In this document: in pieces, positions 2,240 to 44,057 of the stretch
Position numbering within the stretch: the stretch's first letter is position 1
Layout: the number at the start of each line of letters is the position of its first letter
From: Antedon mediterranea
Taxonomy: Eukaryota; Animalia; Echinodermata
DNA length: 64,000 nt
Assembly: GCF_964355755.1 (NCBI RefSeq)
Contig: NC_092677.1
Coordinates: 21,935,175 to 21,999,174 of the forward strand
Reading direction: 5' to 3'
The notes under the pieces: generated by a model
What the model was told of the DNA's origin: nothing
Databases searched by the model: none
What the model saw: the letters and a program-made list of their open reading frames with translations, nothing else
Position numbers and translations under genes: made by a program

Positions 2240-2356
2240 CCTCTTCTATTGATGTGTTTGAATTTCTGAGTCTTGGAGACATGTCTCCTGAATCTAAACA
2301 TGACCAATGCAAGTGGTCATCAAGTTCAGACAAATCAAGTCCTATAGCACTAAATA
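2240..2356 (+). CDS. FHOD3: Formin cassette exon, 117 bp, phase 1-1 (SSIDVFEFLSLGDMSPESK...PIALN)
   Basis: Long pyrimidine tract + tag acceptor, open frame, A|gtgagt donor. Carries the same helix motif as the giant exon. Confidence 0.7.
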
Positions 2357-2841
2357 GTGAGTGTCTCACATTTCTCATCAACTAATGTTGTGTTTTATTC
2401 TAATTGATAAGACATGAATAAATTTAGGATGTAATAACAGTGTGTGGATGGAAATTCAAGAATAAAATAAGCAAAAATGCCAGCGAGTTATAAATGAATT
2501 TAAATGCAGATGAATCAATGCTTATTTTTTACTACAAAAATACTGTAAAACTTATGCATGATTCAAGTTTTAGAAGTTGCACATGCTTCTTCATGGAATG
2601 ATTAACTAACAATACAATTAAAGTTCTAATGTACGGAATAAATATTTATTTAGTTTGGTTTCCTCTGCACATAATGAGGAAAAAGTCTCAATGCCAGGTC
2701 AATTTTAATCTTAGTCATCAACAAAGAATAGAGATTAAAAACAATATTTGTATTTAATGCATTATTGGGAATTTTTCCTTTTTTTGCACTGCTAAAACTA
2801 CACTATATCGTCCACTTTTCTTCATTTTCTCTTTAAAAAAG

Positions 2842-5800
2842 CTTGCACCAATACTGCTTTGCATGTATCGTGCAACAAGCATGTAAACAACAAACATCAT
2901 GACCAATCAAAAAAGATGTCTCAGTACTTAACTTCAGAAATCGTAGAAAACGGTTCAGAAATTCAAATAAATAATCCAGAAAATGAAATTAAGGAATGTA
3001 ATAAAGGTGACATTGAAAATGATGAAGATACATGCAAAACTGATCTAAACGATGTTAAAGGAAATTACAGTAACACAGGTCATATAAATAAACATTTTAA
3101 AAGTGAATTAGCAGTACACAATGAAACAAATGAAAACCGTCAGTCCTCTTATTTGAGGCCAGATAATGAGTGTAGAGATGATACCCTGGAAAATGATCAA
3201 TGTAATAAAAAACATTGTTCTATTGAGGATAAGGAAAAAACAACAAGTAAAATAACAAATGTAGATCGAAGACTCCAAGCTGATATGATTGATTTTGAGG
3301 ATGACACTGTGCTTAGATTGGCTGACGAGATAATTGAATTGGACCGCACTGAGGTGGCTGTGAATGAGACTATTAAACCTAAGCCTAGTTTATCTACTCA
3401 GTTTGAAGCAGATAGAGCACAGTTTAACTTGCATAAGGAAAACAATAATTCACAACTGTGTTGTAATGGAACTATTAAAATCATGGATAATGAGTCAGCA
3501 CAGCTTAAAGAAGATGATCGTAAAAACTTTGTGAGGATAGAAGATTTTGAAAAGGTAAAGTTTGGACCTGTTAGAAATACAAATGTTGATATCAACACAG
3601 CTGAGAAATCAAAGTTAAAGGATGAAATAACAAGCAATGCTTGTTTAAATAGCCCAGAAGCAAAATGTAAAAATTGTCCTGAAGCATGTATTGAAGATGA
3701 CGAACAAAGCAGTCAAGAAAGCAAAAGTGATATTGATAAAGTAGTGACAGAACAACAACTTCAGGCTATTTGTATTGAAAAATGCTATGGGGATGACTGG
3801 AATGGAAAAAGTAACGAAAGGAAATCAAATCGAAGTAGTGGTGATTTTAGCTTGGATTATTTTGAAGATAGCTTGTCATACCCTGTGATTTCCTTAACAG
3901 AACCGCCTAACACACTTATCCCCTATGTAGAATATTGTCCTTCTGTAGGTGATACATCTGATGAGTATTTATCATGTGAGGATGATGAAGCCAATACATT
4001 AGAAAGAGACCTTGTACTGGATGTCAATTTACAATCTGATAATGAAAGCGAAGAAGAATTATCACAAATTTTAAATAATAATTCATCTTTTAAACACAAA
4101 AAATCATTAGATCATGATGAAGTGGAAAATGATGTGATAAGAATCACAGATGATTTTAATGATCAGAAGAAAACAGTTTTAATTGAAGATAAATATGTTC
4201 AAAATGAAGGTAAAATTATAAAAGGCTGTATTGAAAAAAGAAAGTATTTGAATGATAAATTGATTTTGTGTGATTCTGATTCCGGTGTAGGTGATGAGGA
4301 TTCGGGTGTTCCTGTAAATGAAAGTGAAGATAATCAAGGTTTAATTGTTGTGCACAAAGATATTTCTGAATGTGTCTATGATGGTGTTTACAGCAGGAGG
4401 GCTGGTAACATTTTAGAAAACAGGAACGTTGAAGTGTGCAAAGTCCTGGGTCAAGAGGTTAACAATATCTCTATTGATAAAAACAAGCTGGCTTTTGAAA
4501 CCCAGCCTGAGCTTGAAAAGCCTGAGGCAATACCCAAGTCTATGCATTCATTTGATGTGGATAAAAAGAATATTAACAATCATGTTGGAAACGTGTCTGT
4601 AGATACAGGTGATTCCTATCCAAACAGAAATAGCTCTGGGCAAAATGGATACATGCAAATTATAAAAGATGAAGATATATCTTACAGTGAAAGTAAAACT
4701 AATGATAAAATAGGGGTTGACAATTTCTGTTGTGGATCTTGTATTACTGGAGGGAAAACTACAGTTGTGAAACCACAATCCAAGGGTAAAAGTCATCAGA
4801 TACAAAAAGAAAATAACCAACAATTACAGGTACCCTGCCAAGAACTTGGTAGCAGTTGTTATGTAGGGTTATTTCAAGGTAAGTCACCTGCCTTGCCTCA
4901 TGTTGAAAACAGTAATCTAATTGGGAATTCTGTATTGGATAATACATTTTTAGATAAAAGTGAGAGAATTCTACCTCAGACAAATGGCACCAATTCCTGC
5001 AATGAGACAACAGATACAAATGTTGAACATGGATTAGTATGTCTATCAAGTGATGCTAAACATATTAATGTGGAAGATGGATTGAAGCCAACATGTACTT
5101 CATTGTGTATGCCTCATACCTTAATGACAAATGATGAGGTTGTTAACAAGAAAGATGAAAACCAGATAATATACTCTGATGATATTAATATGAGATTGAT
5201 ACCAATTGATGAAACATTTGATAATCATAATTCTATTTTGGAAAATAAAGTTCCTAATAAAATCGATGAAAACGACACAGAGAACCTAGATTTACAAGGC
5301 AGACAAGATAATGAATCCACTAATTTTAAAAATGTTCCTACTCATTTGTCTTTAGAAAGAGGAAGTAATATTGATGAGAAACAATGTAACAACACTATAG
5401 GCAACAGCACCAAAGAAGAGGATATTGAAGTGCATTTAGATGATGAGATTGACAGTTCTGAGAATGTTGATATAGAATATGTTTGTGAACAATTATGTAA
5501 TATAGAAGTAAAGCCCAAGAACAATGTCAATGAAAGTAAAGATACCAATACAGATGAAAACACTAATAATTTACATCCATTTAATCAGGAATTAAAAGAC
5601 AAGAATGATGGTCCTTTGGATTCTGAAAATGTGGTAATTGCTGCACATAATGATTGTTTCTCAAGTACAAGCTCTCAAATTGAATGCAATATGGAAGGTC
5701 AACCAATAGAAATAGAAATTTCTCAAATCTCTACTGAATCTGACTTGATCGGAAATGACATTTTACAATGTTTGACTAAAGAAGTAGCAATTAAGATGAG

Positions 5801-8800
5801 TACATCAGATTGTAATTATAAAGAGATGAACAAAATTGTTCATAATGATCAAATGCTTTCAATTGAAGATGAAATTATAGTTCTTCAAGATTCTAATCTA
5901 AGAGAAGAGCCAGCCAGTGAAAAACAGAGAATAGGGCTAGAATATGACGTACCAGGAACACCAGTTCAAGTCAATAAGGAAAAAGTCGTTGAGCATGAAG
6001 ACACTCATGATTTTAATAATTTCTATGTAAAAGAAACTGAGCAAAATGTAAGCACATCTTTAAATGATGAAAGTAAATCTGATAAATGCAATAATTTGTT
6101 ATTACATGAAAGACAAACTAAAAAGAGAACTCATAAGAAATCACCAGAGCCATCTTTGTTTCAAGTAGCAGAGAAAGTTAGCCATGACCAGAGAAATGCA
6201 ATCATGGATGATGTTCAAGACATTCTTCTGCTTCTTAGTATGGGTGATTCTAGCTTTGGTAGTACAGAAGAAAAAGATGAAGAAACATACATCAACTCAC
6301 CTGATGATACTATTATCAAGGAGAACAGTCAAGATGATGATAATGATGATGAACGTACAGAAATGGATGTTGGGTATGATCAGTTTGATACAGACATAGA
6401 AGATGAAATAGATACTGACAGAAAGGAAGATAACACAGGTGAAATTTACATAGATGAAAACCCATTGAAAAATAAAACATCTATTGTAACTGATTCGTCA
6501 ACAAGTGCCACAGGTAGTATACATTTTGATGAATCAATTCATACAATTTCAAATAAAAGTATTTGTATAGATGAGCCTGTAACATTAAAAACTAACCAAC
6601 ACAAAGAGAACATCAGATCTGGTAAGTCAAATGAGGAAGAAGATTCTATTGGTTTCAGTGATACGGATGTAAATTTTACAGAGATTAATGTATGCAAGAA
6701 GTTAGTGGACTCTTTTGAAAATGAAATTTGTTTACCAGAGTGTACACCAAAATGCGTCAGTTTTACAGAAAAACAAGGTAATAATGAAGCATTGATGAAC
6801 CAATTACAAAATACAGCACTATCTAATTGTGGGGAAAACAAGATCATTCCTCCTGTAGATAAAACTAACATTATATCATCTTCAAATTATCTTGGTAATG
6901 ACTGTACTGATCCAAATATTTATTATAAAAGAAGAAGAGATAATTTAAATGGTAAAAGATGGGATGAGGATGATGAAATACTTAAACTATTAACTTCTGG
7001 CGTTTCTCAACCTGAACATACTGAAAAGGAAATGTCTTGTATGTCATTGAATAGAAGGTGGAATCATAAAATTGAAGAAAATTCTGACAAAAAAGAATTG
7101 GAAAATAGTAAAAAGGAATGTGAAAAATCTGTAGATGAAATAATTACCTATGATTCTCTACCTGATGTTAGCCCAAAGCCTAAAGAAAAGAAAGTTTTGG
7201 CAAAACCAAAACGTTGGAAAAAGCAAATTGAAGAAGAAGTGCTTACTGTTAAAGCGATTAAAATAAAGAAAGCCAAACAAAAGTGTGAAAGGACAGATGA
7301 TGATTTGCTCAAAATGTTAAAAGGTGGTGCTATAACTGACCAGATGAGATTGGCTGAGAAACAAAGTAAAAAACGAAAGGAAAGACGAATCAAGGAACAG
7401 AAAGAGGAAGAAGATGCACTCAATTTCTTAAAAGGTGGAATTGCAGACTTTGTAATCGAAGAGGAAAATTCATCCAATGAGAACACAGAATGCTCAGAGA
7501 TAATTGTAGATGCAAATACGAAAAAAGCTCTAAAGAAAGAACATTTAATTAATAAAGACACGCTAGAAATATCAATTGATACCGCATTTAAAGGAATGTC
7601 TAAAACAGAAGAGGAGAAAATGTTGGCCATGTTATCAGTACGTTCTAATTCTGACAAGAAAAAGAAAACAGAAGATGATAATTTGCTATTGCTTTTAAGT
7701 GAAGGAATCGAGGATGTAGATCTATTTGATGATTTCCAAGACACTCAAGTTGATGTTTCTGAATTGTCATATTATAAAGGCCTAGAGGAACATACAGATG
7801 TAAAAGAGGCTGAAAATGATGCAGATAGTATTGATGAAGAACTATCAGATGAAGAATATAAACATTTACCGGCAGATGAGGGATCCCTTTTGTTAATGTT
7901 ATCAACTGGTGCAATCAGTGAAAAGGAACAATTAGCACAAAAAGTAGCCTATGCTAAAAAAAGAGAAAAAGAGGAACAGAATGATTTGCTTTTGCTTTTG
8001 AGTAATGGAACACAACATTTAGAATTAGATATGTCTACATTCCACGAAAAGCAAGAAGAACATATTGCCAGTGACAAATACAATGATAATTACTTTGATT
8101 CTGAAAATTCAAATTCAGAAGTAGTTTATGTCACAGACCATACTATTTCACATGAAAGTCAAAATCATGTTGGTGCATCTCCAAAAAGCATTAGTATAGT
8201 TAGTGATGAAGATGAGATTCTTGCATTATTAAAATGTAGTAATAAACTTGTATTTGAAAGTGATACAAAAGGAGTTCCCCACCAATCACCAGTAGTTCCA
8301 CAAAAAACAATTTCAACATCAGAATTAAAAGAAACTTGTTCCAATGAAGGTAATAAGGCAAATGTTGAAATGTTGAATCCTATAGAAGAAACATGTACAG
8401 TGATAATGTCAAAGACAAATTGTAACTCAGATAGTCTGGAATTAGACACCCAAATAAACAAGAAATCAACTCAGCTGAGAATGATACCAATGGAAAAATC
8501 GGTACAAAGTAATTCAGATACCATTGGCAAAGATAAAATCCTAAGCACTTCTACTATGGTTAAGGAAGATGAAGCCAAAAGTGAAGATAAACTATGTAAA
8601 CAAGCATCAAGCTCCTTTCCTGTGGAAACATACAAAACAATTAGTGACGAAGATGCTGAAGCACTGTTTTCACTTTTGAAATCTGGTGATGAACCCACTA
8701 AAAATATAATGGCTTCATCAGGTGTTACACATGCACATAACTCACCAGTTGAAAATATGAAAATAGCGCATTCAACAGTAACAAATACTGAACACCAGGA

Positions 8801-8883
8801 TCAGGATTGTATGTTGAGAAATATTGATGAGATTAAACAAGATAAACCAAAGGTTACTGGCTCCTCCATAACTTCAGAGAACA
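2842..8883 (+). CDS. FHOD3: Giant formin exon, 6042 bp / 2014 codons, acidic, low-complexity, probably disordered; phase 1-1
   Basis: ORF 2859-9014 is open for more than 2000 codons in AT-rich DNA. Acceptor ttcattttctctttaaaaaag at 2841 and donor AAC A|gtgagt at 8883/8884 give a length divisible by 3. Confidence 0.8.
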
Positions 8884-9253
8884 GTGAGTATCTGCATGGC
8901 ATTGGGTGCTTGGAGTTCAGTGTTTTTAAACTTGTGCATGGCAAAGTATATAGTATTTTATTTAACATTAGGTGTATTGCTTTAGCATGTGTAATTTGTA
9001 TCCACAAGTTTTAACAATTTAATATTAGCTGATTAAATGGATAGGAGACCACTTAATTATTAAATTGATTGTCCTTTTCAAGTTTATCAATATTTAATAT
9101 GAATTTTATTGCACTTATAATTTATATTCGTATTAAATAAAATGTTATATAACCTTATATGCCATTATCAAGTACTATTATCATTATCAATATCATTGAC
9201 ATCATCAAGCACAAAATATTTAAAGCTTATGACACTTGTTTTCTTCCTTTAAG

Positions 9254-9298
9254 CCTGGTGGCCTGATAGCGCAGAAAGTCCTCAGTGTAGTCCTTACA
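9254..9298 (+). CDS. FHOD3: Formin microexon, 45 bp, phase 1-1 (WWPDSAESPQCSPY)
   Basis: ttcttcctttaag acceptor, A|gtgagt donor, open frame, GC-richer than flanks. Confidence 0.65.
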
Positions 9299-9929
9299 GT
9301 GAGTACAACACATCACCAGCACATCTCATAAAACAACAATGTTTAGTTAAATTAAAGCTTAGTTTCAACTTCAAAACCTGTCGTGATACACTGTACTATA
9401 TATACTACAATTATAGCATAATGATTCCATCACAAATACAATATGATTAGTGTAATTGGATAAAACGAAATTAGATGAAGTTGTTTAACTAGATATCTTT
9501 TTAAAATAGCCTTTTTGGTAGAAGCTTGTTATATGTAACCTCTGCTTTATGAGCGTATTATTTCTTATTTTTGTTTTTTGTTATTTATGTGACTTATGCC
9601 ATAAACTATTAACTGTTGTGATTGTAGTGAAAACAATTTTATTTCCCTAGATTCTTGTTCCAATAATGATTGTGCAAATATCGTTTGTGGAAGAAATATT
9701 AACTTTTAATTTGACATTGACTTGTTATTTCTAACCATAATAATACATTGGTACCATATTAGCATTCTTGTTTTTAAATAATATGGTTCAATGAAGCATA
9801 TTGTTTCCCTCTTAGTCTTGCCATCCTCAAATATAATATTCATTTCTCCTATTTAGAATAAAAAAAAAATATTGTACTGTTCTTGAATTCTAAATTGCTA
9901 TCTTTTAAATGCTTCTTTGATTTCTCTAG

Positions 9930-9962
9930 AGACTTTTCCTCCATCTGACAAACTGTATAATA
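9930..9962 (+). CDS. FHOD3: Formin microexon, 33 bp, phase 1-1 (TFPPSDKLYN)
   Basis: tttctctag acceptor, A|gtaagt donor, open frame. Confidence 0.6.
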
Positions 9963-10624
9963 GTAAGTTTTAGTTTTTACTTTTTAAAAAATTAGACGAT
10001 ACATGGTCTATTTCTGCTGCATAGCGCCGAATAAACCGTTCATAGATTTAAAATATAATTTGTATATTGACTGCATTTCTTCTCAATTTTTGCCCCTAAA
10101 TAACTGTTTAAATCGTTAGCATTACTCAAAATGCAATGGGTCCTGGTGGTTAATTCAAACGTTACTGCAGTATAGTTGACTGAAGGTCAGCGGCTGTCAA
10201 ACAACAGGTTAAATGGCACTGAATCAATTGGGTGTTTTTAACTGTTATTAATAAATTATTAGTAAATTTAATACTATTCTTCTAATTTGATTTGAGTTTA
10301 GCTGTTAAATAACATGAAAGAAACAATGAATATAAGAATTAATTTTGATTACATTATTTTTGTTATTTTTTAATTAGGGATATGGGTATAAATTCTAAAT
10401 GATGCTAACTTTTTATGGCAACACTCTTAAACTGAGAAACCTGTTATGATGGTAATTCTAAATTTGCCCATCAGTAGGCTTAGGCCTAATTTTTTTTTCT
10501 TCTATTATTTGTATTTTTCTTTTTATATCGCCTTAAATTAAAGTTTGTAAAAGTATTTCAAAATTGTAAACAATTTGATATTGTATGCCACTTTAGCTCA
10601 TATAACTAATTACAAGTGATTACC

Positions 10625-11379
10625 GGTATATTATAACACCTAAATAAATTTCTGTCATTTGATTGGACTATTGTGAGTCACATGGTGATCGTTAAATAGT
10701 ACTTTTTTTTGTGTCCGAAAAAAAATTATGTTCGCGTACGAAAAAATGTACACAATAACAAACAAAAACACTTGATTATATCGCCATGGAATTTTTTGAG
10801 AGATATACGTACTATTTTAGACCAAATTAGCATTTAAATTAGCTTTAGATCGTTGATGATTTTGATTAATTAATGGCAACAACTCAAAAAGACATGGAAT
10901 CGTAGAAACAAAATACAAAATTAGCCTCAATCACTTTCAGTTGCCAGGCGAAGTTTCGAAATGATATTGCTGACTTTCTAGCCTAAGCTAATATATACTA
11001 TTATTATAAAATCATATTATATAATAGCTTAGTCCACAAAGGCAGCAATACCCTTATAAAAATATATATAATTGTTTTGCAATATAAATAATGTTACAAA
11101 AGAACAAATAAATACTACTGTTTTCAATGTCAATGTGTATTATGTATATATATTATAATATCTGTATGCTTTTATTCAATCTGATTCAAATGACAGGAAT
11201 CTATTTAGATGTTATATAAAACCGATAATAATGAATGTTTTTATTCATGGAATGGTACAAATAATATCATTCGGTGAATGATGAAAAGTTATTTCCTTTG
11301 CCTCGTTAAAATATAACCTTTCATCATTCTCCTCATGCCATTATTTGTACCATTCCACTCATAAACATTCATTATTTGT
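10625..11379. mobile_element. Non-autonomous element with a long terminal palindrome; inverted copy at 61741-62526
   Basis: Collinear reverse-complement similarity to 61741-62526. 11228-11379 folds back on itself (aataatgaatgttt..ggaatggtacaaataat / attatttgtaccattcc..aaacattcattatt). Confidence 0.7.
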
Positions 11380-11433
11380 ACTATTTAATATTAGAACAAC
11401 CTATGAAACAATGCAGATGAAATAGTAGAATAT

Positions 11434-11900
11434 GACCCCATTTACACTTCAGCTTTTAGCGAGCCCGAGTCCGGCTCCGAGCCAAAAGTGCCCAAGTGTA
11501 AACACTCTGGGAACAACCGAGCCGGCCTCGAGCCGGCTCAATTTTGAGCCTAGTCTAGAGTAGGCTTCGGGCCGGCAATTACGGGCTTCGGGCCGGCACT
11601 TCGTAAATAGTGTAAACACTCGCGGTCATAAAATGAACGTTCTGGGTCAACCATAGTTTAAAGTTTACGAAACTTATTGGTGATGAACGGGAATTCTTCA
11701 TTGAAATTAAATTGGTGTATATATATATATATATATCTTATCATCGAGCACTCTTCCGTGAGAGCAAGTGTAAACACAATAGTAGGGGCCCGAGGCCGGC
11801 TTTTTGGGTAAGTGTAAACACATTGCGGGCTAAAAAGAAAGCCGGCGTCGGGCCGACTTGGGGCCGGCTAAGAAATCGTTGATGAAGAGTAAATGGGGTC
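11434..11900. mobile_element. PIF/Harbinger-like MITE
   Basis: TIR gaccccatttac / gtaaatggggtc, 3-bp TSD TAT on both sides, internal GC-rich repeats (gtgtaaacac, gagccggc). Confidence 0.75.
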
Positions 11901-12073
11901 TATGTGTAACCAGTTGCCCTTTGTTTATATTATGGTACTTTGGTTCAATTCAAATCAGAGCCAGAAGAATGAGATAGTGAATGGTTTGCAGACTTACAAA
12001 TGATTTCAACCTATATAATATTTAGTTATCATTGTTATGATATATTTATATTTGGTGATTGATTGATTGATAG

Positions 12074-12187
12074 ATTGGTGGAGTATGCACCATACTACAA
12101 AATCACATGCAACAATACAGGAAGAACCAGAATTGAGTTCAAAAGAGACAAAAACAGCAATCAATGTAGCATCTGAAGCTACGACAC
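12074..12187 (+). CDS. FHOD3: Formin cassette exon, 114 bp, phase 1-1 (WWSMHHTTKSHATIQEEPELSSKETK...EATT)
   Basis: tag acceptor after (gatt)n (weak pyrimidine tract), open frame, C|gtaaga donor. Confidence 0.55.
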
Positions 12188-12329
12188 GTAAGAATATCAA
12201 ACATGCTAGTTGCTATTGCAATACACACTAACATATATTTATATAACCGTTTTTTTTGCAGCTCAAATATTGGAATGGAATTCTAGGTTATAATAATAAT
12301 AGGCAATGTATAATTGGTTTGAAAAATAT

Positions 12330-12545
12330 AAATTTTTAATTTAGCATCGTTATCCTAGTATCTGGGCCGGTATACGACCTTTGGGAATAATGCTTAAACC
12401 ATGGAATTACAGTACTATAGTTTAGTTTATGATTATATTTTGTTTTGTACAGTAGGCAAGACTATATTTACATTAAACAAAATGATTGTTAAAACAAAAA
12501 TAATTGATAATAAATCATTATTTCTGAAGAAAGAACAATAATTAT
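12330..12545. repeat. Dispersed repeat shared with ~41645-41850
   Basis: tacagtacta..tttagtttatgattatatt..agtaggc.agactatatt..aataattgataataaatcattatttctgaa is present at both loci. Confidence 0.6.
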
Positions 12546-12896
12546 AAATGTTACGTCAAAAAGTTGAGCAGCATTTTTTGTAAGAAATATTTCTTGTTAT
12601 CAGTTTTCTTGCAGCCGGCCAATACAGTGGTTTGGAATGCAATTCTAGGTTTTCTTTGTATTATAATTTCATTATGGTTTTTAACAAGCATATTTAGTAA
12701 TTCTTTGGATTATTCTTTAAATTACTTTTTAATCGAATATTCATGTCTATAATTAAACAATATTTTTTGTAATGTACAAAACACAGTAATTGTGTGTAGA
12801 TTTCCGTTGCTTTTGGCTTTGTCATAGATTTTCATTGGTTCCTTTAAACACAGATTTAATTTATTGGACAAATAATTTTTAGGTTTCAAAATATTA

Positions 12897-13310
12897 GACT
12901 AGAAGGTATTCTTTTTTTGAAATACATGATTCCTGGTTTTATATGCATCAATGTCGACCTGCATGACAGAGGATGTGCATGTGTATTTTCTAAGATTCTG
13001 AGTAGAAGTTATTCTTTTTGTTGAAATACATGATTACTGGTTTTATGCATATCAATGTCTACCTGCATGACACAGGATGTGCATGTATATTTTCTGTTAG
13101 ATTCTGAGTAGAAGTTATTTTTTTTGTTGAAATACATGATTACTGGTTTGCATATCAATGTCGACTTGCATGACAGAGGATGTGCATGTGTATTTTCTGT
13201 AAGATTCTGAGTAGAAGTTATTCTTTTTGTTGAAATATATGATTTCTGGTTTTATATGCAGATTTCAATAACTTGCATGATAGGATGTGCATGTGTATTT
13301 TCTAGATTCT
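12897..13310. repeat. Tandem repeat, unit ~105-110 bp, about 4 copies
   Basis: Recurring agaagttattctttttgttgaaatacatgatt..ctgcatgacagaggatgtgcatgtgtattttct..agattctgagt. Confidence 0.9.
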
Positions 13311-13370
13311 GTATCAATGATGATTGACTTTTATTTGTTTTCTTGGATTTATAATTATATTTCAATACAG

Positions 13371-13454
13371 CCTCTTATATTGCTGTTAGTGTTACTTCTG
13401 AAAAGGCTAAAGCTGTAGTCCCTCGATACAGGTCTAGGCAGAGAATTCAAGACA
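13371..13454 (+). CDS. FHOD3: Formin cassette exon, 84 bp, phase 1-1 (SYIAVSVTSEKAKAVVPRYRSRQRIQD)
   Basis: tacag acceptor, A|gtgagt donor, open frame. Confidence 0.7.
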
Positions 13455-13844
13455 GTGAGTTGTTCACTAGATTTGTTCACTGATAAAGGAAAATTCGATT
13501 GTAAAAATGTTTGTATTAATGTACATTAACATTCTAATGAAATATAGTCTCATACACTGATGTTTCATAATGAACAAAATATTTTTTGGTTTAGTTATCG
13601 ATACTCTAACAGTATTTTTAATACATTAATACATATTCATAATACACCCATAGCGATAACATACAATCAATAATAGTGAAGCACAACTTCTACAATTTCA
13701 ATTGTGCTTCCTACATACAATTATTATTACAGTATTTAAAAATATTTATTGATGTAAATAAATATTGTTTGTTTCTTTTAGTATTGGATTGCAGTTGCAA
13801 TTTATGACCGTAATCATATTTTATATAAAACCACTTTTTTATAG

Positions 13845-13898
13845 ATGCTGATGATATTATGAAATTATTAATGGAGGGTGATTCAACTTTAGATTGTA
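13845..13898 (+). CDS. FHOD3: Formin small exon, 54 bp, phase 1-1 (ADDIMKLLMEGDSTLDC)
   Basis: cttttttatag acceptor, A|gtgagt donor, encodes one copy of the repeated helix motif. Confidence 0.75.
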
Positions 13899-14262
13899 GT
13901 GAGTACATGTCCCTCCCTTATAGTTTACTTTCTATATCACCATTTTTCACACACAACTAAATTACCAAATCTATAAACTATTTTTGTCACTTTTTACTTT
14001 TTACACAACATAACATTACTTTAAGTAAGATTTCAATCAAAGTAAGATAGCAATACAAAGGAGAAAAATGTTATCATGTTTAAGAGGTAAAGTGTATAAT
14101 GTATTAATATTCAATTAAATATAATACAATTGAATATTAATACATTTAAAAATCATTGGAATTCTTGATCATTCTTATATGTATTCATCATTAAGTTAAA
14201 ATTTAATTAAGGGAAGAAATATTAGATTAACATCATTTCATTATACAATATTTACTCATTAG

Positions 14263-14385
14263 GTAATACAGATTTAACATCATGCAATGACATGTCAAAA
14301 GATGATAATACCATCAAGAAGTCTCTCACAGAATATCCTTCAAGACCAGTGGATAAATCTACTACACAATCATCTGTAGTGGGCA
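14263..14385 (+). CDS. FHOD3: Formin cassette exon, 123 bp, phase 1-1 (NTDLTSCNDMSK...QSSVVG); alternative in-frame acceptor at 14272
   Basis: ctcattag (or tacag) acceptor, A|gtaagt donor, open frame. Confidence 0.65.
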
Positions 14386-14820
14386 GTAAGTGTTAGAACA
14401 AGTAGAAATGTGTTTTCATTCAATTTGTTTAGAGTTTCTAACATTAGCCGTCTTATGTTATATGACAATCAATGCACATGTTTTCCCATTCCTACTGTGC
14501 AATTATATTATTACTATTTGTTCATCTGGTTGGACACTTTTTTGGTGGTTTGTGACAGTCCAGATAAATCCATTCTCTAAGTTAAAATATAGTTTTATAG
14601 GTATTCATGTAATCATAAATAAAACATAAAAAACATTTAAGACCTGATTTTATGTTCTATGCCTGTTTATATATAATAGTATTTCTTCGGAGGTCCAGCT
14701 TCGTAAATTAAAATACTGAAAGCATATCAATTCTGTCTCTGGTGCAGATGCGTATAGTGCTGTTTCACTGTACCACACCAAAAGTCCCTATCCAATTAAA
14801 TTTTGAATAATACCATGAAA

Positions 14821-14893
14821 GCCCCAGTGGTCTAATTTTAGGATATCTGCATATCAAGCAGAAGGTTCCAGGTTCAAATCTCGGTTGCGGGGA
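14821..14893 (+). pseudogene. tRNA-like sequence within a dispersed repeat (related inverted piece at ~36200-36290)
   Basis: A-box-like gtggtctaat, tctgc-atatcaa-gcaga arm, B-box ggttcaaatc; acceptor stem is poor. Confidence 0.45.
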
Positions 14894-15237
14894 CCTTTTC
14901 TCATTCTCACAGTATAAAGTATAAAGTTAAACAAATATTATTTTAAAATATTAAGTTAAACTGTTTTCTACATCTATGATACAAATAGTAATGTTAAAGA
15001 AAATGTTTAGATCTTTACTCATAATTTATGTGTAACTTTTATGTTATTCAGTAGGTATTATTTATTTTGTTAATTAACCACTGTATACAAATAATTGATA
15101 GTACAGTAGAGTGTTTTACGCAAAGCTTTATTGTGATTATTTTGTATTTGTTAAAAAAGTTTATTATGTAGTAGTATTAATTTTATTCATTACATTTAAA
15201 AACTAAATACATTTTTATGATACTTTACCCATAATAG

Positions 15238-15333
15238 AGAAAAAAACTACAGCTGATGATGAAGAAGATATATTGAAATTGCTCACGAAAGGTGACTCAT
15301 CTCCCAAGACTATGATATCTACTCATACTGAGG
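15238..15333 (+). CDS. FHOD3: Formin cassette exon, 96 bp, phase 1-1 (KKTTADDEEDILKLLTKGDSSPKTMISTHTE)
   Basis: tag acceptor, G|gtatgc donor, clear copy of the helix motif (compare DEDDEILKLLTSG in the giant exon). Confidence 0.75.
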
Positions 15334-24972: not shown

Positions 24973-24984
24973 GTAGCGAATTCT

Positions 24985-31650: not shown

Positions 31651-32687
31651 GATCAAATGAAAAAGTTCATTTACCTATGGTCCAAAAATTAGCCAGCAGT
31701 CCTACAGAGACTGCTTTTCATCCTCTAGTGCAATCATTAAAAACAAGTCAAACACAAGATGCTATGCAAGAGCAGATCCAGACAAGTCCCACATCAGATT
31801 CACTAAAAGCAATTAATGGACCACATATTCCTAGTAGCGCTGGCCTGTCGGATATGAAACCACATACTCCTAGTAGCGCTGGCCTGTCAGATACAAAACG
31901 TTATATTCTAGATATGACATATAAACCAGATGACTTACCAACAGCATCACCATCATCCCATTCACGAAAAATATCAACTTGCCTTCACAATTCACCTTCT
32001 ATTATTACAAGAATGGAAAGTTTGAATTCTCCATCTACCCTCTTATTACCACAGAAAGACATTTTAAATAATTTTGGAAAAGTACAATCTGTTCAGGACA
32101 AGCTGCAATTACAGTCTTCACCTGAAGGAACAGTAGCAGAAGAATCTAGCCGTCGTGGTGATGTTAGTGGTGCTATTAGCCAAGCAATTCAAGATTTAAG
32201 TCGTACAAACCCACCAGGATCAATATCAGAGGAAGAATCAATCCCAAATCCACACGAAGAACGCAAAAAAGAATGGGAAAAGATCTTGCATATGAACAAA
32301 CGTGAGCTACGTATTATGAATTGGGACTTCACTGACCTAAATACTGAAGATGATGATGATATTTTAGATTATTTAACACCAATGTACTTTCTGAATGGTG
32401 TACCACCACCACCTCCAGTTAGTGGGGCACCAATGTTTATGCCACCACCGCCACCTATTGTCAACTCGCACAATAGTACGTTGAAAAGGACACCTGATGA
32501 AATAAATAAGAAAAAGAAAACGGTAAGACTACATTGGAAGGAAGCTAACTTGGAGCATCCGGTGTTCTCTTCCATAAAAGAGGGTTCTCAGACAGGTACA
32601 ATCTGGGAAACGCTATCATCAGTAAAATTAGATTGTGACAAACTTGAACATTTGTTTGAGAATCGCACTAAAGAATTGTCGATCAAG
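31651..32687 (+). CDS. FHOD3: Formin exon: Ser/Pro-rich linker, FHOD pre-FH1 motif, FH1, FH2 lasso
   Basis: ttttcag acceptor, AAG|gtaaat donor; RELRIMNWDFTDL, two PPPPP tracts, KKKKTVRLHW, IWETL, KLEHLFE. Confidence 0.93.
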
Positions 32688-34517
32688 GTAAATTATTATT
32701 ATGTAATTATTATTATTATTATTATATAACCGAATAATTAATCTACAAAAACATAAAAAGATCAATCTGAATATAATCAATTGATGCATGGATGCAATAT
32801 TCATTTAGATTACATTTTTACCATTTTCACATTTTGAGTTGGTCATGAGCCTACAAGAACAACCACCACTACATACAGACAAGACCAGCTTTTAATATAT
32901 GATCAATCGAGCAATGGTTATGTTATTGCTTCAAAAGTTTACAATACCATCCATCTGGGAAAAACAAGTCAGACAGTTATATCTGGTTTTTTCTGTAGTC
33001 CTATGTAGCTTATATTTTATTATTATATTTTTTTAATACTGTACTATAATATTTTTAGAAATGTTTATATTATAGACCTGAACCACATATGCCTTGTATA
33101 GAGTAGTATGCTCAAATTGAAAACAAAATAATAGTAATAATAATGTTCGTTTTACCTTTCCCTTCATTACGTGCCAATTTATATACTAAAACTTTCATTT
33201 ACAAAAAAAGGAAGAGTCCCTAAACAATTATTCAATTCCTAAATGTTAATTTTATTTCATATTTTGTTTTCAAGTTTGGCACTAGTTTTAGTGTATGAAG
33301 TAAGCTTCAATCCTTTTTCTAACTTGCTTTTTGATATTTTTTCTGATTTGTTTTAAATTTTTGCTCAAATACCTCACTGGCTGATGCTTGATTTGCATGT
33401 ATACAGGACCAGGTTAGTACACATTTAGCTTTTTTACTGACTGTCCAATGTTTAAGAAGCCAATTTGTAACGATCATTTAAATTATGCAGTACAAATTAA
33501 CAGTATTTAACCATAACATGAAGTTTCCTTAGAAAAACATTAGCAGTTTAAAAGAAAGGTTTATGTTATTGTACAGTAATATTTGTAAAATTTGTTGGAA
33601 CTGTAACTTGTCCTCTTACATGATAACAAAGATGGTATACAATCTTTGACAATTTCATTTCATGACTGCCAATTCATAAGCCATGATTTTATTTACATAA
33701 GCTATTTTTTATATACATGTTTTGCGGTCAATTTCCCACTAACTAAATGTACATATTCTCTTTTTTTACACCAGCCCCATCATGGTTGGGGCTGAGGTGG
33801 TTGAGACCGTCTCACACACAACCTCTTTATATTTTAATACAATTAATAGTGATTGGTTGGTCTATGAAAGGCTCCACTTTTTAAAAATTTGAACCCTTCC
33901 ATTAAAATCCTAGTTATGTTCCTGTGCTATGATGCAATTGTTGTGATCTAAACATCTTGCTATGCTTGAATGCCCTTATTTAATACAGTTATAACAATAC
34001 TACCTCTCTGATTGTTTTGAAATATTATTGTACGCTTTCTCTATGCTAGATTTAAAACTGAGCACATACAATTTTTGTTCACTTAAAATGAATTAGTGGT
34101 ATGCCTGTAGACCATAACACAAACATTGCATTAGCTTTCAGCATTATCTGCTGAATGATCTCAGTATAGTTTATTTTATATTTATTAAATCATTTGCTGA
34201 TCATTTTTGTGGTAATAAATAATATAACTAATACTAAGTGTTCCTAAATTAAATGGTTGTTATATTCAATCCCTTACCGGTATATTGTTTATACTTTACA
34301 GAAGAGTAACATTACAGTATTTACCCATGTGTAATTGGTCTAGCTGCTATTCACTTTGATTTACTCAATATTTATATTCCTAAATTTGTTCATCCTTTAT
34401 AGCTCATATAATATACCTAAATCGACTGACATAGCTTGAAAATATTTTTAATTTGTTTTTTCATTGTAAAATTAAAATTACAATTCATAAACTACTCTTT
34501 TTAATGTACTTTTTTAG

Positions 34518-34673
34518 AAATCCGATTCTGTGAAGAAAAATGTTTTAACAGTACTTGATCACAAGCGTTCAAATGGTATCAACATTGGATTGACAGTTTT
34601 ACCTCAACCTCGTACAATTAAACAGGCTATTCTAAACATGGATAGCATCTCAATTAATAAAGAAGGAGTAGAG
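34518..34673 (+). CDS. FHOD3: Formin FH2 exon (VLDHKRSNGINIGLTVLP...KEGVE)
   Basis: FH2 motif with the conserved Ile; tag / GAG|gtaaga; phase 0-0. Confidence 0.95.
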
Positions 34674-35598
34674 GTAAGATATAATACTTTATTAGCATAC
34701 TATACTTTGTTTAAGTTAAGTTAGATAATTAGTTAGCGACAATTAAAACGAATTGTCCCAAATAGATTGGGGTATACACTGTCTAATGGATGTCGATGCC
34801 GAAAAATACCCGCACACAATGATACGAGGATGCTTCGCATTTATCTATCTCCCTCTACGATAATTGTTTTTAATAGCTGAAAATTGGTTAAACAGCTCAA
34901 GTACAGCATCATAATGTTGAAGACAAGCCGATTTTCTTTAAAAAAAATAGTATTTTGATTTTGGCGATAATAATATTCCAATCTCTCTTCCACAAGTGTC
35001 TATTCTACCACCCTCTCCTCAATGTCATGAGTAGCATTGTAAAGCCAGTACTTTATTTCAATTGATCAGACAGTTAAAATATATAATTACATAAACACTG
35101 AAAATGCTAATGCCATACCGGTATACCATATAATAACTTTCTAATAATAGTAATTAACCTGAGTTAGTTGCTTTCATAAGCACAGTTAACGGAAACTTTA
35201 GTGGGTAGGAACCAACTTACCCGTGTAAATAACGTACCGTATTAACTGGCTCTAAGAGGTGTTTTTCACAAACTGTTTCAAATTATATAAGCACATATAC
35301 AAATAAAATTTATTCTCAATGTTTGTATTAATTTATACTTTAATTACAAAAAATATAAACTTTGTAGCGGTGTATCATTATGTGTACTTACTATGACTAT
35401 GACAGTGAAAGTTTCAATTAAATTGCAATGTTTTACTATGTTTGGTGGTATATTATTTGTAAAACATGAAAACAATTAATATTTCGTTACTGAATGAATA
35501 AAGAATATAATTATTTAAAAATTGTTCCTCTTTGCACCCATCCTCTTCCCCATCCCTCAACCCTATATGATAAACTGAATATTTACCATTTTTTCAAG

Positions 35599-35781
35599 AA
35601 ATTACTGACATTAGTGCCTTCTGATGAAGAGATTAAGCTAATCCAAGATGCTATGGCTAATCATCCTGATGTACCACTTGGATCAGCTGAGCAGTTTCTG
35701 ATGACGATGTCTTCCATCAGTGGATTAAAAGCTAGGCTGAATCTATGGTTGTTTAAGATGGATTATGAAACCTTAGAACAG
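35599..35781 (+). CDS. FHOD3: Formin FH2 exon (KLLTLVPSDEE...LGSAEQFL...ARLNLWLFKMDY)
   Basis: FH2 knob sequence; caag / CAG|gtaaat. Confidence 0.95.
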
Positions 35782-36032
35782 GTAAATCAACAAATTATTA
35801 TACTACAATTTACCTATTTTTCACAGTTTTGGCTTTGTATCGCAGATGAAGACATCATAAAAAGTATTCAGACTTTAATTTGTCACCAATCATGAATCAA
35901 TTGTTAATTTGATTGGTTGGTGATTTGACTGTCTTTCACTTAAATAACTTAAGATCCTTCAAATTAATTTATATTTGATCAAACACTTTAAACAAATTCT
36001 GTACTGTTATTTTATTTTAATTTATACATCAG

Positions 36033-36152
36033 GAGGTAGCTGAACCACTTGCTGATTTGAAACAAGGCATTGAAGATTTGAAATCATCAAAAACATTGAA
36101 ATACATTCTTGCAACATTACTTGCCATTGGTAACTTCCTTAATGGAGTACAG
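36033..36152 (+). CDS. FHOD3: Formin FH2 exon (EVAEPLADLK...LLAIGNFLNGVQ)
   Basis: GN(F/Y)(L/M)N signature; cag / CAG|gtaaaa; absent from the ORF track. Confidence 0.95.
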
Positions 36153-36938
36153 GTAAAATATATATCACTCAGTTACTGTCAGTTACCGTCATAAAAAGTC
36201 GCCCCAACCGGACCCTCTGCTTGATATGCAGATGTCCTAAGCTTTAACATTCTCGGTGTGGTACAGCGGAACAGCACTTGTTCCTCAATTGTACGCACGC
36301 ACAACAGATAAACACATCAGGCACAGAACATTATTGACTACATACCTCCTTGGCCGAGTTAAATAAATAATAATATCGAACATTTAACATTGGTGTTAAA
36401 CTGGTGGTCCAAATGCTTGCTTTGTATATGCCCGGTATATTGATCAGTTTGAATGTTGCAGAAGAGCAGCCTATAAAAAAACAAATATAACAAATAACAA
36501 ATCCATTCATGCAGTCAAATGTAAAAATATTCTATACCATGTTTAAACCAAAATAACTATGTGGATTAGAGAGATGTATTTTGAATGCATCTAAAAACTG
36601 TTCTTACCTTTGTTATGGGCATGTTGTCCATTATTGTCTCAGGATAAAGTTCCACAAGGTCGAACAGTATATCTAAAAGGATAATAATGGCATCTGTGTC
36701 TACTGTTTATCATCTATATGACAACCAGTACCATACCAGTGTCACTAGGCTGACACAATATTTTTTTTTCAATAAAGTCACGAACTATATGTGAAGGAAA
36801 GAAATACTAGGAAAGAAGGAATTAATATAATTCATTTTGGCAAATATAATTTACTTTGCTTCATTGTTTATTTATACAAAATTAATTGACACTTATATTA
36901 CCAGTAAACATTGAGAATTGTACTTTTATTTTTCTTAG

Positions 36939-37100
36939 GCCAAAGGTTTTAATCTAGAATATCTTGCCAGAGTACCAGAAGTTAAAGATACAGTGCATAA
37001 ACAATCCCTCCTCCATCATCTTTGTAGCATGGTAATAGAGAAGTTTCCAGATAGTTCAGATCTGTACAGTGAATTAGCATCTATAAGTCGTTGCTCAAAA
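36939..37100 (+). CDS. FHOD3: Formin FH2 exon ([28 protein letters not shown]...RCSK)
   Basis: FH2 post region with the conserved Lys; ttag / gtaagc. Confidence 0.95.
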
Positions 37101-37459
37101 GTAAGCAGTTTAGTTATAATTTTGATAAACATAATTCCATGTGATATTGTTAAAGAAAAACCAAAAACTTCATCGAATTCTGATGCAAAATATATTCTAT
37201 TTTATTAATGCTTAAAGTAAACATAATTTAAAAATAACAAATAGATGATTTCCTTATATTTGTGAATAGTGGACAAATTTATTGAAATACAATTTTTTAT
37301 AATTTTGGTATCTTTTTTTCATCACCTTGTCTCAATTATTCTCAGTTAGTTGATGCATTATGATTGAAAGCCATGAAATCATAAAACAAAATGTTGAATT
37401 CCACGAATATCAGAGAATTTCAACAAATTTTCTTTAGTAAAGTAATCTATTCATTTTAG

Positions 37460-37575
37460 GTTGATTTTGAGGTGCTTGCTGTTACACTAGAGAGAATGGA
37501 GATTCAATGTAAGCAGTCCTGGGAACATTTGAGAGTCATCTCCAAGCATGACAGCCATTCCCAACTAAAAAACAA
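37460..37575 (+). CDS. FHOD3: Formin FH2 exon (VDFEVLAVTLERMEIQCKQSWEHLRVISKHD)
   Basis: FHOD-like CK.SW.HL..I.KH; ttag / gtaagt; phase 0-2. Confidence 0.93.
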
Positions 37576-38652
37576 GTAAGTAACCATTCTTCTTTATTCT
37601 TTATTTCAAGCCAACAGTGTAAAACACCAATAACATTATGAGATCTATACAGGATTTAGATTAGCAGTGTGAAAAATTAAACTAGCACAATATTACAGAG
37701 CCACATAAAGAGTTATAACATTCTTTTCCATGAATCACAAAGGCATGTGGTAGTAGGCATGTTGTTTAATTTTCATCATGTATATTATAGAATGTTCCTA
37801 TAAATCTCAAACTTTAATCGCATAGGACAATTTTAATGAGTAAATTGTTGATGTACCTCCAGCAAAGGATTAAAAAATATGTATTGTGCACAAAGTTCCA
37901 GAGGCATAATACAGCTAAGTGATCCTCCAATACTGGGGCTTTGAATACCGGGCATATATTAATATGTCCCATTTCCGCAACATTTCTGAAATATTTAACA
38001 TGTACAATTTTTTAATTTTTTACTTTACTGTATTCAGAAATTTATTTTATTTTTTTAAATTTTTGTGTTCCTCCTCAGGAGCTCTCTTGAGCTCAGGACC
38101 CTGTGTTTAGCCAGTGATCACCACTAACCAGCCCATTAAAAAAATGTTCAAGATCCATTTCTCAAAGCACATATAACCTCTAATGATAGTTGTCACATGT
38201 GCACATGGTATTGATTTAATTGCAGTGAAACCGAATTAAAGTATAAGAAAAATGACTTTTATTATGACTATTATTATATTAGGATTATACAATACCATGG
38301 GATATTGAAATAGGTTGGATATGAATATTTTTGTTTAAAGCTTAATACCCCATTTCTCTGCCAGCAAAATTGCAGAGTTTATCCGTAAACTTTGGCGCCA
38401 CGCCTTTAGGCAGTTATATTCCCAGAGGACATGTAATGATAGTACTACAGTATTTTTACTGGGAAATAGTAAACTCGACTAATTTATAGGTCCATGCTCG
38501 ACGACACAAAGAAGTCTGTCTGTAGGCTAGCTGATCAAAACATTCCTTCCTCTAAAATTATTCTTGCGTATGTCGTAAAGTGTCACGTTGTCTCTAAGGA
38601 CTGTCCAAATACATGAGAAAATAATGTAGTGAAATTCGTTGAATGAGCTTAA

Positions 38653-40226
38653 AGGGGATTCTGGGTTTAAAATTGCTTTTAAATATTGTTTATTTATTAA
38701 ATAAAAAATATTATAACAATATAGACATGTCAGAATGAAGAAGTAATAACGAGAAATTAAAAAAATTAAATTTCATATACATTTTAGGGTAAATTCATGG
38801 AAAGTCTGTTTTTCAGCAGCTTAGGGAAGCTCATTAATATTCATGAGATATTCACAAAATCACGTCATCAGTGGATTCTAAACTCGCGACGTCATGTACG
38901 TTGTGTTTGTCAACTAATTTACATCTCTCTCCCTTGTCAAACGACGACCAACCGATCATTGTGAAATACATTTTTTGTAGATTTTCTAAGCTGGGCCTAA
39001 AGTGTAATAATAACAGTAGTAGCATATATTTATTTGACATTTAATGAAATACAAAATTTAGTACAGATTACGGAGTCAAAAATTATTATACTATTTTTAT
39101 ACCTCGAATAGTACAGATCGTATTATCGGCTTCACATACTAGGCGTGGCCTAGCCTAAATCATTTTTTTCATGGGTGAGAGCCATTCTGACTAGGGATTC
39201 CATGCCACGATGGCTACGTTAAAACATTGGGGTCCGTCATGGGCCTAGCTAGCCAACTACTAAACGATTGGCCCATAAATAACAAACCAAACTCCTAAAC
39301 AATCTAAACCTAAAACGTTCTATAAAATTGGCTGTAAATATTGAGACAAAACAAGGTCCTATCGCCGTCCGCACGTATGGTCTCCCGATCGTCTAAGTAG
39401 GCCTAAAATAGGCCTAGTTTACTCTCCAAAAAAGCGGATACTGCATCAAGCAAGTAGACCAGGTAGTAGGAAGGAGACCTAGCCGATCCGGCCCAGTTAA
39501 AAATTGAGCTAGTTATTGTAGTAGACCCTATGCGAATTGATACTACCAGGCCTTTTACTATAGGCTACACTTGTTAAAATTAGCAATACTTATGTTTACA
39601 AATATTCCAACTCTCTCATTATCTATACCATTCCGGTAGGTCGAGTCGACCTTCAATCAAATACTGTACATCGTTCATGTTGTGATTATAGACGGGGTAT
39701 ACTCGACCGACCAGTTTGGTATTGTATACTGTATCTGCTTATCACGTGACGATGCCAGGCATGGGCCGGCAGAGAGAGCATGTGTATCGTCGTCTCGCTC
39801 TCCTCGCTCAGCAGGAATGTATACATTACGCTTCATTGATTTTTTGAAGGCTTTCCCTAAGTCGGTGCGAAAATCGGCAAACGTAAAGTGCAAACATATC
39901 TAATTTTTCACTGTTTTGATGAATTTTCATAGAAAATTGACTTTATAAATGGGAAGACCGACTAAAATTAAATCAGATAAGTATAATTTTACAAAAGTAC
40001 TTGATATGGTTAATGATAATGAGTCGTCGGAAGATTGACCATTTCACGAATTTTCTATCTGTAACACAGTGTCATATCGCCGTAGCTGCACTTGTAATCT
40101 GGCCTCATTTCACAGCCTTCGTTCTGCTTCACTGGGCGCTTATATAAATTGAAACTTTTACGGTTCAAGAGACAAACAAATATATTTTACATTTTTTACT
40201 ATTCATTTTAAACCCGGAACGCCCCT
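38653..40226. mobile_element. Kolobok-like non-autonomous transposon
   Basis: TTAA|aggggattctgggtttaaaat ... attttaaacccggaacgcccct|TTAA: imperfect TIR, TTAA TSD, purine termini. Confidence 0.75.
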
Positions 40227-40825
40227 TTAAATAAACACTTTTTTATTTAATAAACATGTAATATCATATTTTATGAATTTTACAATGTTGATATACAAAA
40301 TATATTACTAAAAACCGTAATTTTATGTAATTATTTTAGTGAAAAATGGACCATAGTACAATTGCCGACTGAGGGCGCAATTTGTTTATTTTCAGCGATG
40401 TTTTAGACTCTATAATTCGAAAACTACAAGTTGGATTTTCATAATTTGTTTTTACTCGGGGTACCCGAGTCTAGGACTTAATCATTTTCTCCTCTTCCTC
40501 CATCTGGACACTATTGAGTAAAAAGTGCGATTTTTAAAGTACTACTCCTCCCTTATTAGTTGTAGTATTGAGCTGGGATTTGGCATGAATATACTACAGG
40601 CACATGTCCTCAAATCTATAGAGCAGGATTTTAAAATTTCAAACCGGATGCAGCCATATGACGTCTCGAAGATGGTACCATATAGCTGTATTTGGTAGGT
40701 TATTGATGTGTATGTGACGTCACATCCCGTCTTATGACGTCATTACAGCTTCATTTTTTAATTAATTTGTTTAATTAAGAAGCCACAATGTGTGACACAC
40801 ACCACAGCGTTATGTAGTTATATGC

Positions 40826-40884
40826 GGCTTCTTGGCGTAGTGGTTAACACACAGAAGGTCCCCGGTTCGAGCCCGGGCGAAACC
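40826..40884 (+). pseudogene. tRNA-Val-like pseudogene, internally deleted
   Basis: ggcgtagtggttaacacacagaaggtccccggttcgagcccgggcgaaacc followed by poly-T; part of the D and anticodon arms is missing. Confidence 0.6.
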
Positions 40885-41097
40885 TTTTTTTTTTAACTTT
40901 ATGGTGAAAAGTACTGTATACGCAATATGATATACAGTATATCTTATTTTTATTATTTTTTTAAATATTTATTTTGTGTAATCGGTAATTATCACTTTTA
41001 CACATGTTTATCTTGCTTTGTGCTTATTACCATAATAATTTATTTGTAATTTAAATGGATTAAAAAACTTTGTGTAACCCACATTTTTGGTGTAAGA

Positions 41098-41173
41098 GGT
41101 TTCGTAGTGTAGTGGTTATCAAGTCTGCTTAACGCGCAGAAGGTCCCTGGTTCGAGCCCTCATGGCGAGACCA
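41098..41173 (+). pseudogene. tRNA-Val(AAC)-like pseudogene
   Basis: ggtttcgtagtgtagtggttatca..tctgc-ttAACgc-gcaga..ggttcgagcc..gcgagacca + TTTT; the T-stem is disrupted by extra bases. Confidence 0.7.
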
Positions 41174-42304: not shown

Positions 42305-42636
42305 TTTATTTATTGTTTGTTTGTTTGTTTGTTTTATCTTTATACTGGGTAACCTCTTCAGTCAAAGACTGATCTCCCAGAGGGCCCAGTTGGTGATCAG
42401 TGGCTGTGATGTACTAATACACCGGGGTAACCCCCTACTCATCTCGAAAGATGTACTAGGTTCTTTAAAGTGCACACGAGCAAGTTGTGTACACTGGACC
42501 TACGGTTTATAGTCCTTATCCGAGAAGACTCGTTCTACCACCAGAACCATGGAGTGAGTGAGCCTCGAACCCCTGCCGATGTTATGGCTACGTGATTACG
42601 GTTCCACTGTCTTAACCGCTCGGCCACTCACTCACA
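42305..42636 (-). mobile_element. Full-length tRNA-headed SINE with Deu/Nin-type core
   Basis: Minus strand: A-box tggccgagcgg, B-box ggttcgagg, core ctcggataaggactataaaccgtaggtcc..taaagaacc..gagtagggggttaccccggtg, and an (aaac)n/(aaat)n tail. Confidence 0.8.
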
Positions 42637-43928: not shown

Positions 43929-44057
43929 GTGAGGAATAGAAAAACCTACAAGCTTATCCAATAATTTCACACTGGTTACCAAATTGTAGGAGAATTTAAA
44001 ACATCTATGACATTTATATAAAGGAATTAAATTATTTGTTATCTTTCTTTTCCACAG

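Follow-up and report, generated by a model that had tools for sequence, protein, structure and literature searches.

The window examined here is a stretch of 64,000 nucleotides from the crinoid Antedon mediterranea (contig NC_092677.1, positions 21,935,175 to 21,999,174 of the forward strand), and most of one plus-strand formin gene of the FHOD type makes up its content. The subject of this report is an array of short repeats in the disordered linker between the FH3 and FH1 regions of this formin, which a first-pass annotation of the letters alone had listed as 13 helices resembling the DAD or WH2 motif. All 13 peptides claimed are present on the plus strand, in frame and at the places given for them. 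The exons and copies are as follows, each core range starting with the hydrophobic core.

2240..2356, + strand: small exon, phase 1-1, with a weak, divergent copy (core 2254-2277)
2842..8883, + strand: giant internal cassette exon of 6,042 bases, phase 1-1, acidic, with 10 copies in its last 900 codons
6222..6245, + strand: motif core, copy 2
6978..7001, + strand: motif core, copy 3, near consensus
7305..7328, + strand: motif core, copy 4
7416..7439, + strand: motif core, copy 5
7620..7643, + strand: motif core, copy 6, lacking the final Gly that its Anneissia counterpart has
7683..7706, + strand: motif core, copy 7
7887..7910, + strand: motif core, copy 8, without an aligned Anneissia counterpart
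7986..8009, + strand: motif core, copy 9
8217..8240, + strand: motif core, copy 10
8664..8687, + strand: motif core, copy 11
13845..13898, + strand: 54-base exon, phase 1-1, holding little besides copy 12 (core 13856-13879)
15238..15333, + strand: 96-base exon, phase 1-1, with copy 13 (core 15270-15293)

The giant exon shares 99.95% identity over 2,014 residues with the Antedon mediterranea gene model P0195 (3,705 residues). An FHOD-type FH2, an FH1 and a C-terminal DAD with an extended polybasic tail identify the host as an FHOD formin. The GBD(SRBM)/FH3 is present at the start of the near-identical model P0195; its exon gave no tblastn match within the window, and a contig of run X1 runs on upstream of the window with letters that the window does not contain. 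The FH3 exons probably lie upstream of the window. The copies had been described as dispersed through the N-terminal half of the protein; they are in frame as stated, and their spread is confined to the disordered FH3-FH1 linker (residues 467-2677 of P0195), downstream of GBD/FH3. Over its first ~1,100 residues the giant exon holds zero copies. This motif-free start (2842-6200) is acidic, contains 38 Cys and shares about 31% identity with Anneissia.

That one motif recurs here holds against shuffled sequence: the giant frame has 10 matches to the core pattern, its shuffles have 0.10 on average, and 0 of 5,000 shuffles reach this count. The pattern was drawn from the same window copies that it counts, and a matrix scan of sea-star proteins therefore serves as the independent test. 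Trained solely on the 13 window copies, the matrix finds 8, 6 and 6 sites in the sea-star proteins P0005, P0124 and P0125 (shuffle means 0.005, 0.025 and 0.0; for each protein 0 of 200 shuffles reach the count), and sea-star FHOD isoforms carry 6-9 copies under this window-only matrix. The motif is conserved in relatives of Antedon. Leave-one-out scores range from 7.4 to 23.8 bits for 12 of the copies. The copy at 2254, although its peptide is present in frame on the exon 2240-2356 as claimed, is a weak and doubtful member because it scores only 1.0 bit; a divergent counterpart of it exists in the second crinoid.

The anatomy of the motif was determined on 86 copies, picked by pattern from nine proteins and including 12 of the 13 window copies. 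The consensus consists of a basic patch, an acidic run and D-[IVL]-[LM]-x-[LMF]-L-S-x-G. Lys and Arg are enriched at positions -20 to -6 (0.24 vs 0.14; 0 of 2,000 permutations), the acidic run occupies -5 to -1 with Asp at -1 in 70 of 86 copies, and the core [IVL]-[LM]-x-[LMF]-L has Ala as the commonest residue at x. When +5 and +7 are left unconstrained, Ser or Gly stands at +5 in 70 of 88 copies and Gly at +7 in 77 of 88; all 13 window copies have a large hydrophobic residue at +3. The spacing between copies, 19 to 667 residues, argues against a folded repeat domain. In a low-confidence AlphaFold model of 7245-8270 all seven copies are helical within a chain that has no fold (pTM 0.19).

Pfam holds no family for the giant frame and returned two chance families only for 10 repeat peptides. 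Two motif profiles searched against PDB sequences found only chance matches (best E 0.21 and 0.51), none of them to a DAD, WH2, LD or tropomodulin chain, and the ESM Atlas gave no usable match for two repeat regions. As it matches none of the catalogued motifs tested, the motif is a candidate new short linear motif. The annotators' remark that they knew of no description of such an arrangement agrees with the literature surveyed, in which no account of the array was found; subscription papers lie largely outside that survey, and alignment figures might show the motif unnamed. Motif and array appear to be undescribed, while short-motif arrays in disordered regions and isoform inserts in FHOD are already known in kind. 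An acidic element before FH1 was considered as a further copy and rejected (best 3.8 bits on the repeat matrix). Of 22 sequence variants between runs, 15 alter a residue and none lies inside a motif, which is uninformative because the motifs cover only about 6% of the giant exon.

Outside the window the motif was sought with a profile of 17 positions, built from the 13 window and 4 sea-star copies and searched against 1.84 billion proteins. Seven matches were obtained at E up to 0.001, six of them FHODs or FHOD fragments, the motif being restricted to this one gene. Two of the seven belong, partly by construction, to FHODs of sea stars; P0129 has an FHOD FH3, P0130 has an FH2, and P0131 and P0132 are fragments related to P0129/P0130. 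The match to P0133 (E 5e-4), a HEAT-repeat protein, was rejected as a false positive. By matrix, linker copies number 12 in Anneissia, 10 in Saccoglossus, 10 in Ptychodera, one in each of two Glandiceps models and about 19 in P0129, which groups with echinoderms and hemichordates (support 97/98) and is placed to no class. Motif carriers thus comprise two crinoids, three sea stars, three acorn worms and one further ambulacrarian. The strict pattern occurs in 0 of 226 other FHOD proteins (115 of at least 1,629 residues), a set dominated by isoforms from fish and amphioxus, insects and molluscs being sparse. The profile search is blind to single copies and missed both array-bearing crinoid proteins. 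Because the FHOD set is skewed and the profile misses true carriers, restriction to Ambulacraria is likely, not proven.

The split between echinoderms and hemichordates is more than 500 million years old. Within the linker the motif cores are better conserved than the spacers in four of four pairs, namely Antedon/Anneissia (65/96 vs 739/2012), Acanthaster/Asterias (39/64 vs 291/636), P0132/P0129 (30/40 vs 273/560) and Saccoglossus/Ptychodera (51/96 vs 459/1236). Between crinoid and sea star only weak, motif-anchored matches are left (E 0.007-0.8); from one echinoderm class to another the helices alone are conserved. Such conservation across echinoderms and hemichordates excludes drift, and with it one half of the proposal that sees in the repeats generic signals for sorting or export (acidic dileucine or LxxLL type) or low-complexity by-products of drift. 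The other half draws on the match of [DE]xxxL[LI] to 51 of 86 copies and of a loose hydrophobic-x-x-hydrophobic-hydrophobic pattern to 83 of 86; strict LxxLL is found in just 14 of 86, and Gly at +7, Ser/Gly at +5 and the M/F variants at +3 are left unexplained. We regard this proposal as very improbable.

Splicing of the array was followed in contigs of transcript type, compared over 2200-9000 only. Run X1 is RNA only by a guess from its record, no run being recorded as RNA. In one of its contigs an upstream exon is joined to 2240-2356, and position 2356 in turn to 2842 over a GT..AG intron; another stops at 8883, and its loose end matches the exon at 9930. Since these contigs join across both of its ends, the giant exon is a spliced internal cassette. 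The intron-skipping joint is found in X1 and in none of three other runs compared over the same range. Two further linker exons are involved:

9254..9298, + strand: small linker exon with a second SPYKTF-like element conserved in echinoderm FHODs; not a motif copy
9930..9962, + strand: small linker exon, direct successor of the giant exon in run X1

The X1 contig passes from the giant exon straight to the 9930 exon. The exon 9254-9298 is bypassed there but present in P0195, a direct sign of alternative linker splicing. The SPYKTF-like element of this exon, followed by LY, is common to crinoid, sea-star and P0129 FHODs and was not found in the hemichordate, amphioxus and snail proteins checked. 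Phase 1 is the start phase of each of the 17 linker exons located and the end phase of 14 of them, and such phase 1-1 exons can be left out with the frame intact. The three with another end phase are over-extended by the longest-match rule; the 13845 exon measures 54 bases when its canonical donor is used. The evidence that the exons at 13845 and 15238 are included is gene model P0195.

Annotated isoforms are not equal in copy number, with 1, 8 or 9 copies in the Acanthaster models and 0 in three models from Patiria. These differences support the earlier suggestion of a multivalent array with valency set by splicing; the conserved array and the differing copy numbers stand, and the isoforms behind them are automatic gene models. 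The long Acanthaster models (P0005, P0121-P0123) and the Saccoglossus model P0130 start without GBD/FH3, which may reflect an alternative start or a split gene model. In the Asterias and Ptychodera models both FH3 and array are present.

The labels DAD and WH2 given in the first-pass annotation were then compared with the 86 copies. In the published FHOD register, where cores such as EILESLVKTA are aligned with GVMDSLLEAL (PMC5047451 supplement), the sequence resemblance to the FHOD-type DAD is real and comprises an acidic run and, after it, a short helix that is hydrophobic at 0, 1 and 4, in the same protein. On it could rest a reading of the repeats as DAD mimics whose binding to the FH3 groove, in cis or trans, would loosen autoinhibition or cross-link formin dimers. 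Of the 86 copies, 35 have Met at +1 and 44 have Ala or a hydrophobic residue at +8, in agreement with this reading; the upstream basic patch could replace the polybasic tail in reversed order, and the motif is found only in a protein having FH3. The label itself does not hold. With the DAD core defined as hydrophobic-M-D-x-L-hydrophobic-x-x-hydrophobic (PMC12858348), 0 of 86 copies match the FHOD core, even in relaxed form. D/E stands at +2 in 19 of 20 DADs vs 4 of 86 repeats, V at +5 in 20 of 20 DADs vs 0 of 88 repeats, and the repeat matrix gives no true DAD more than 1.5 bits. Nor does the mDia1 DAD register used earlier fit, its Met position being acidic in the repeats and hydrophobic in 3 of 86.

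A polybasic tail follows the core in 5 of 5 true DADs and in 16 of 86 repeats, where 13.9 are expected by chance (281 of 1,000 draws reach the count). According to PMC12858348, autoinhibition of FHOD1 depends mainly on that very stretch: the DAD is held by the polybasic stretch on an acidic FH3 surface, single Arg changes in the stretch cause release, and single core changes leave binding unweakened. The Acanthaster models with 8-9 copies are without FH3. DAD mimicry is accordingly given a low probability. Other helix classes fared no better: the LD motif LDXLLXXL and its inverse LXXLLXDL (10.1101/278903) match 0 of 86 copies each, and the FH3-binding nesprin motif DxWLD[IVLA]xE (10.1101/2020.06.19.161299) occurs in 0 of nine proteins. 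Repeats outside the DAD and WH2 classes may still function in a DAD- or WH2-like way.

As to WH2, an LKKT-like motif follows just 1 of 86 copies (0 of 29 in a first set), and the label falls with it. The repeats do have an amphipathic helix with hydrophobic residues at 0, 1 and 4, as in the definition of the WH2 helix in PMC7407642. They might accordingly be actin-binding helices, WH2-like without LKKT and maybe copies of the post-FH2 helix described below, which would sit in the barbed-end cleft or on filament sides and bundle filaments or capture monomers by avidity. The 0, 1, 4 spacing equals that of L36, L37 and I40 in the WIP WH2 helix, and the WH2 helix alone is reported to keep much affinity, with a 10-fold loss (PMC7407642); the FHOD linker is reported to bind F-actin weakly (PMC10192571). 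Against actin stand the near absence of LKKT, the large hydrophobic residue at +3 in every window copy and the lack of any WH2 family or chain in the Pfam and PDB profile searches. We consider this reading unlikely.

The rest of the gene in the window contributes the following exons.

31651..44250, + strand: FH1 and FH2 exons, by domain matches
46735..46849, + strand: exon coding for the conserved post-FH2 helix, which within the gene resembles the motif most
54454..54591, + strand: exon with the true DAD core and polybasic tail
60948..61033, + strand: last coding exon, with the stop codon

This short helix, which follows FH2 directly, keeps its place in the FHODs of molluscs, insects and vertebrates. 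The published DAD/WH2 alignment lists a single motif per FHOD, the DAD (PMC5047451), and the post-FH2 helix may for this reason be an unnamed element. On the repeat matrix it scores 7.0 bits here and up to 12.5 bits in a mollusc; 4 of 51 distinct helices (12.5, 7.7, 7.0 and 6.5 bits) score above every one of 16,103 background windows (maximum 4.8 bits), a point for the actin reading, and the mean over post-FH2 helices is -7.0 bits, a point against it. A monomer model of FH1-FH2-tail (P0006) makes the helix visible at low confidence (block means 51-59) and so gives no sign of helix packing on FH2. Conceivably the array is an amplified post-FH2 tail helix, through which every FHOD would contact a single partner, actin or the formin itself, and which an ancestor of echinoderms and hemichordates copied up to twenty-fold into spliceable exons, exon choice becoming a dial for tethering, cross-linking or self-inhibition; we think this origin rather unlikely. 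If this is true, the array would uncover a so far hidden binding site in FHOD3, the human cardiomyopathy gene.

Between the post-FH2 and DAD exons lies a possible micro-exon of 23 bases (47389-47411) with splice-like ends, which is not part of P0195. The introns contain several tandem arrays: a minisatellite at 24973-27536 with a unit of 33 bases, about 80 copies and higher-order repeats; a 22-base tandem unit at 20943-21009, inverted at 21507-21607 and flanking a 21-base array, which together (20943-21607) look like a small inverted-repeat element; and, in the last intron (60106-60865), two arrays of a 26-base unit in opposite orientation.

Compared with DADs the repeats are more hydrophobic (H 0.22 vs -0.01) and less amphipathic (moment 0.44 vs 0.60). 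This would suit self-associating stickers, hydrophobic helices that pack together and make the long isoform a gel or condensate scaffold. The wide hydrophobic face (4 of 5 positions), the small residues at +2, +5 and +7 and the charge-blocked flanks in a sticker-and-spacer layout of the chain point the same way. The fixed Asp at -1 together with Gly at +7 suggests one defined pocket instead, the acidic runs would repel each other, and the single-chain model has no confident packing, which is weak evidence either way. Self-association is improbable on balance.

The reading we prefer, to which we assign about an even chance, is that the repeats of this ambulacrarian FHOD linker array are multi-point docking helices for one putative partner other than the formin's own DAD groove. 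Each copy, a predicted two-turn helix in a disordered chain, would fold upon binding to a groove of one conserved partner, with its four hydrophobic side chains (0, 1, 3, 4) buried there, the Gly at +7 terminating the helix, and the acidic run and preceding basic patch sensing charge beside the groove. A single copy would bind weakly, and avidity for a repetitive structure would come from up to 13-20 copies strung along a tether of about 2,200 residues. The target would most likely be the contractile lattice of muscle, the FH2 dimer being held where thin filaments are built, and exon choice would set the valency, i.e. the number of contacts.

Muscle targeting is probable by analogy, the context being inferred from the FHOD inserts of vertebrates, nematodes and insects. 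An insert of cardiac FHOD3 in the same linker binds myosin-binding protein C (PMC10192571), a linker exon of the long C. elegans isoform is needed in muscle (PMC6027879), and the long Drosophila isoform targets the Z-disc (PMC5061545) and carries its own repeated Trp-Trp motif (PMC4601495). Several points weigh against the docking reading. The pattern used to pick the 86 copies fixes several of the columns described; the AlphaFold model was built from only 2 sequences, with a mean pLDDT of 51; motif-anchored pairwise alignments inflate the contrast between cores and spacers; and the muscle context rests on analogy, the docking partner being putative. In C. elegans the short isoform, and not the long one, also rescued some muscle defects (PMC6027879), and the Drosophila extension is N-terminal, outside the linker. 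The snail FHOD models P0200 and P0242 are extended by about 1,000 residues ahead of the GBD, as are the long isoforms of insects, but without the Trp-Trp repeats.

FHOD formins build sarcomeres, and disordered inserts target their long isoforms by a binding code that is mostly obscure. Here the code of the insert is plain: echinoderms and hemichordates have kept, in one gene, a motif of 13 residues in up to about 20 repeats, while the spacers have turned over. The motif is a ready bait for partner finding, and the array a natural case of exon choice changing valency; the limited clade and a mechanism that is a proposal set the bounds of this significance.

Among known systems, the FHOD-type DAD differs from the repeats, beyond the positions given above, in that it occurs once at the C-terminus, has its basic stretch after rather than before the core, and lacks the hydrophobic +3 and the Gly at +7, whereas the repeats are many and lie in the linker. 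With the WH2 helices of WIP, WASP and Spire arrays the repeats share a helix of two to three turns, hydrophobic at 0, 1 and 4, repeated in a disordered chain; they differ by the missing LKK(T/V), the acidic lead-in and a wide spacing in place of close tandem. The tropomyosin-binding site TpmBS1 of tropomodulin and leiomodin shows a resemblance in a register set by us: an acidic residue and two Leu are spaced as D19, L22 and L25 of Lmod2 (PMC7500696). Its second helix (L30, L33, L37) has no equivalent, all three positions being hydrophobic in 1 of 86 copies. Paxillin LD motifs, likewise several short acidic amphipathic helices in a disordered region, are probably the best functional analogy, although the repeats have an acidic residue in place of the first Leu and LD motifs have no fixed Gly. 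Also comparable are the isoform inserts of FHODs themselves (cardiac FHOD3, C. elegans exon 8 and the insect Fhos Trp-Trp extension), which are alternatively spliced disordered segments with a tissue-specific role. The insect extension also holds a repeated short motif and sits before the GBD; in all of these the motif is unrelated, and the linker inserts measure 158-175 residues against about 2,000 residues and up to about 20 copies in the array reported here.

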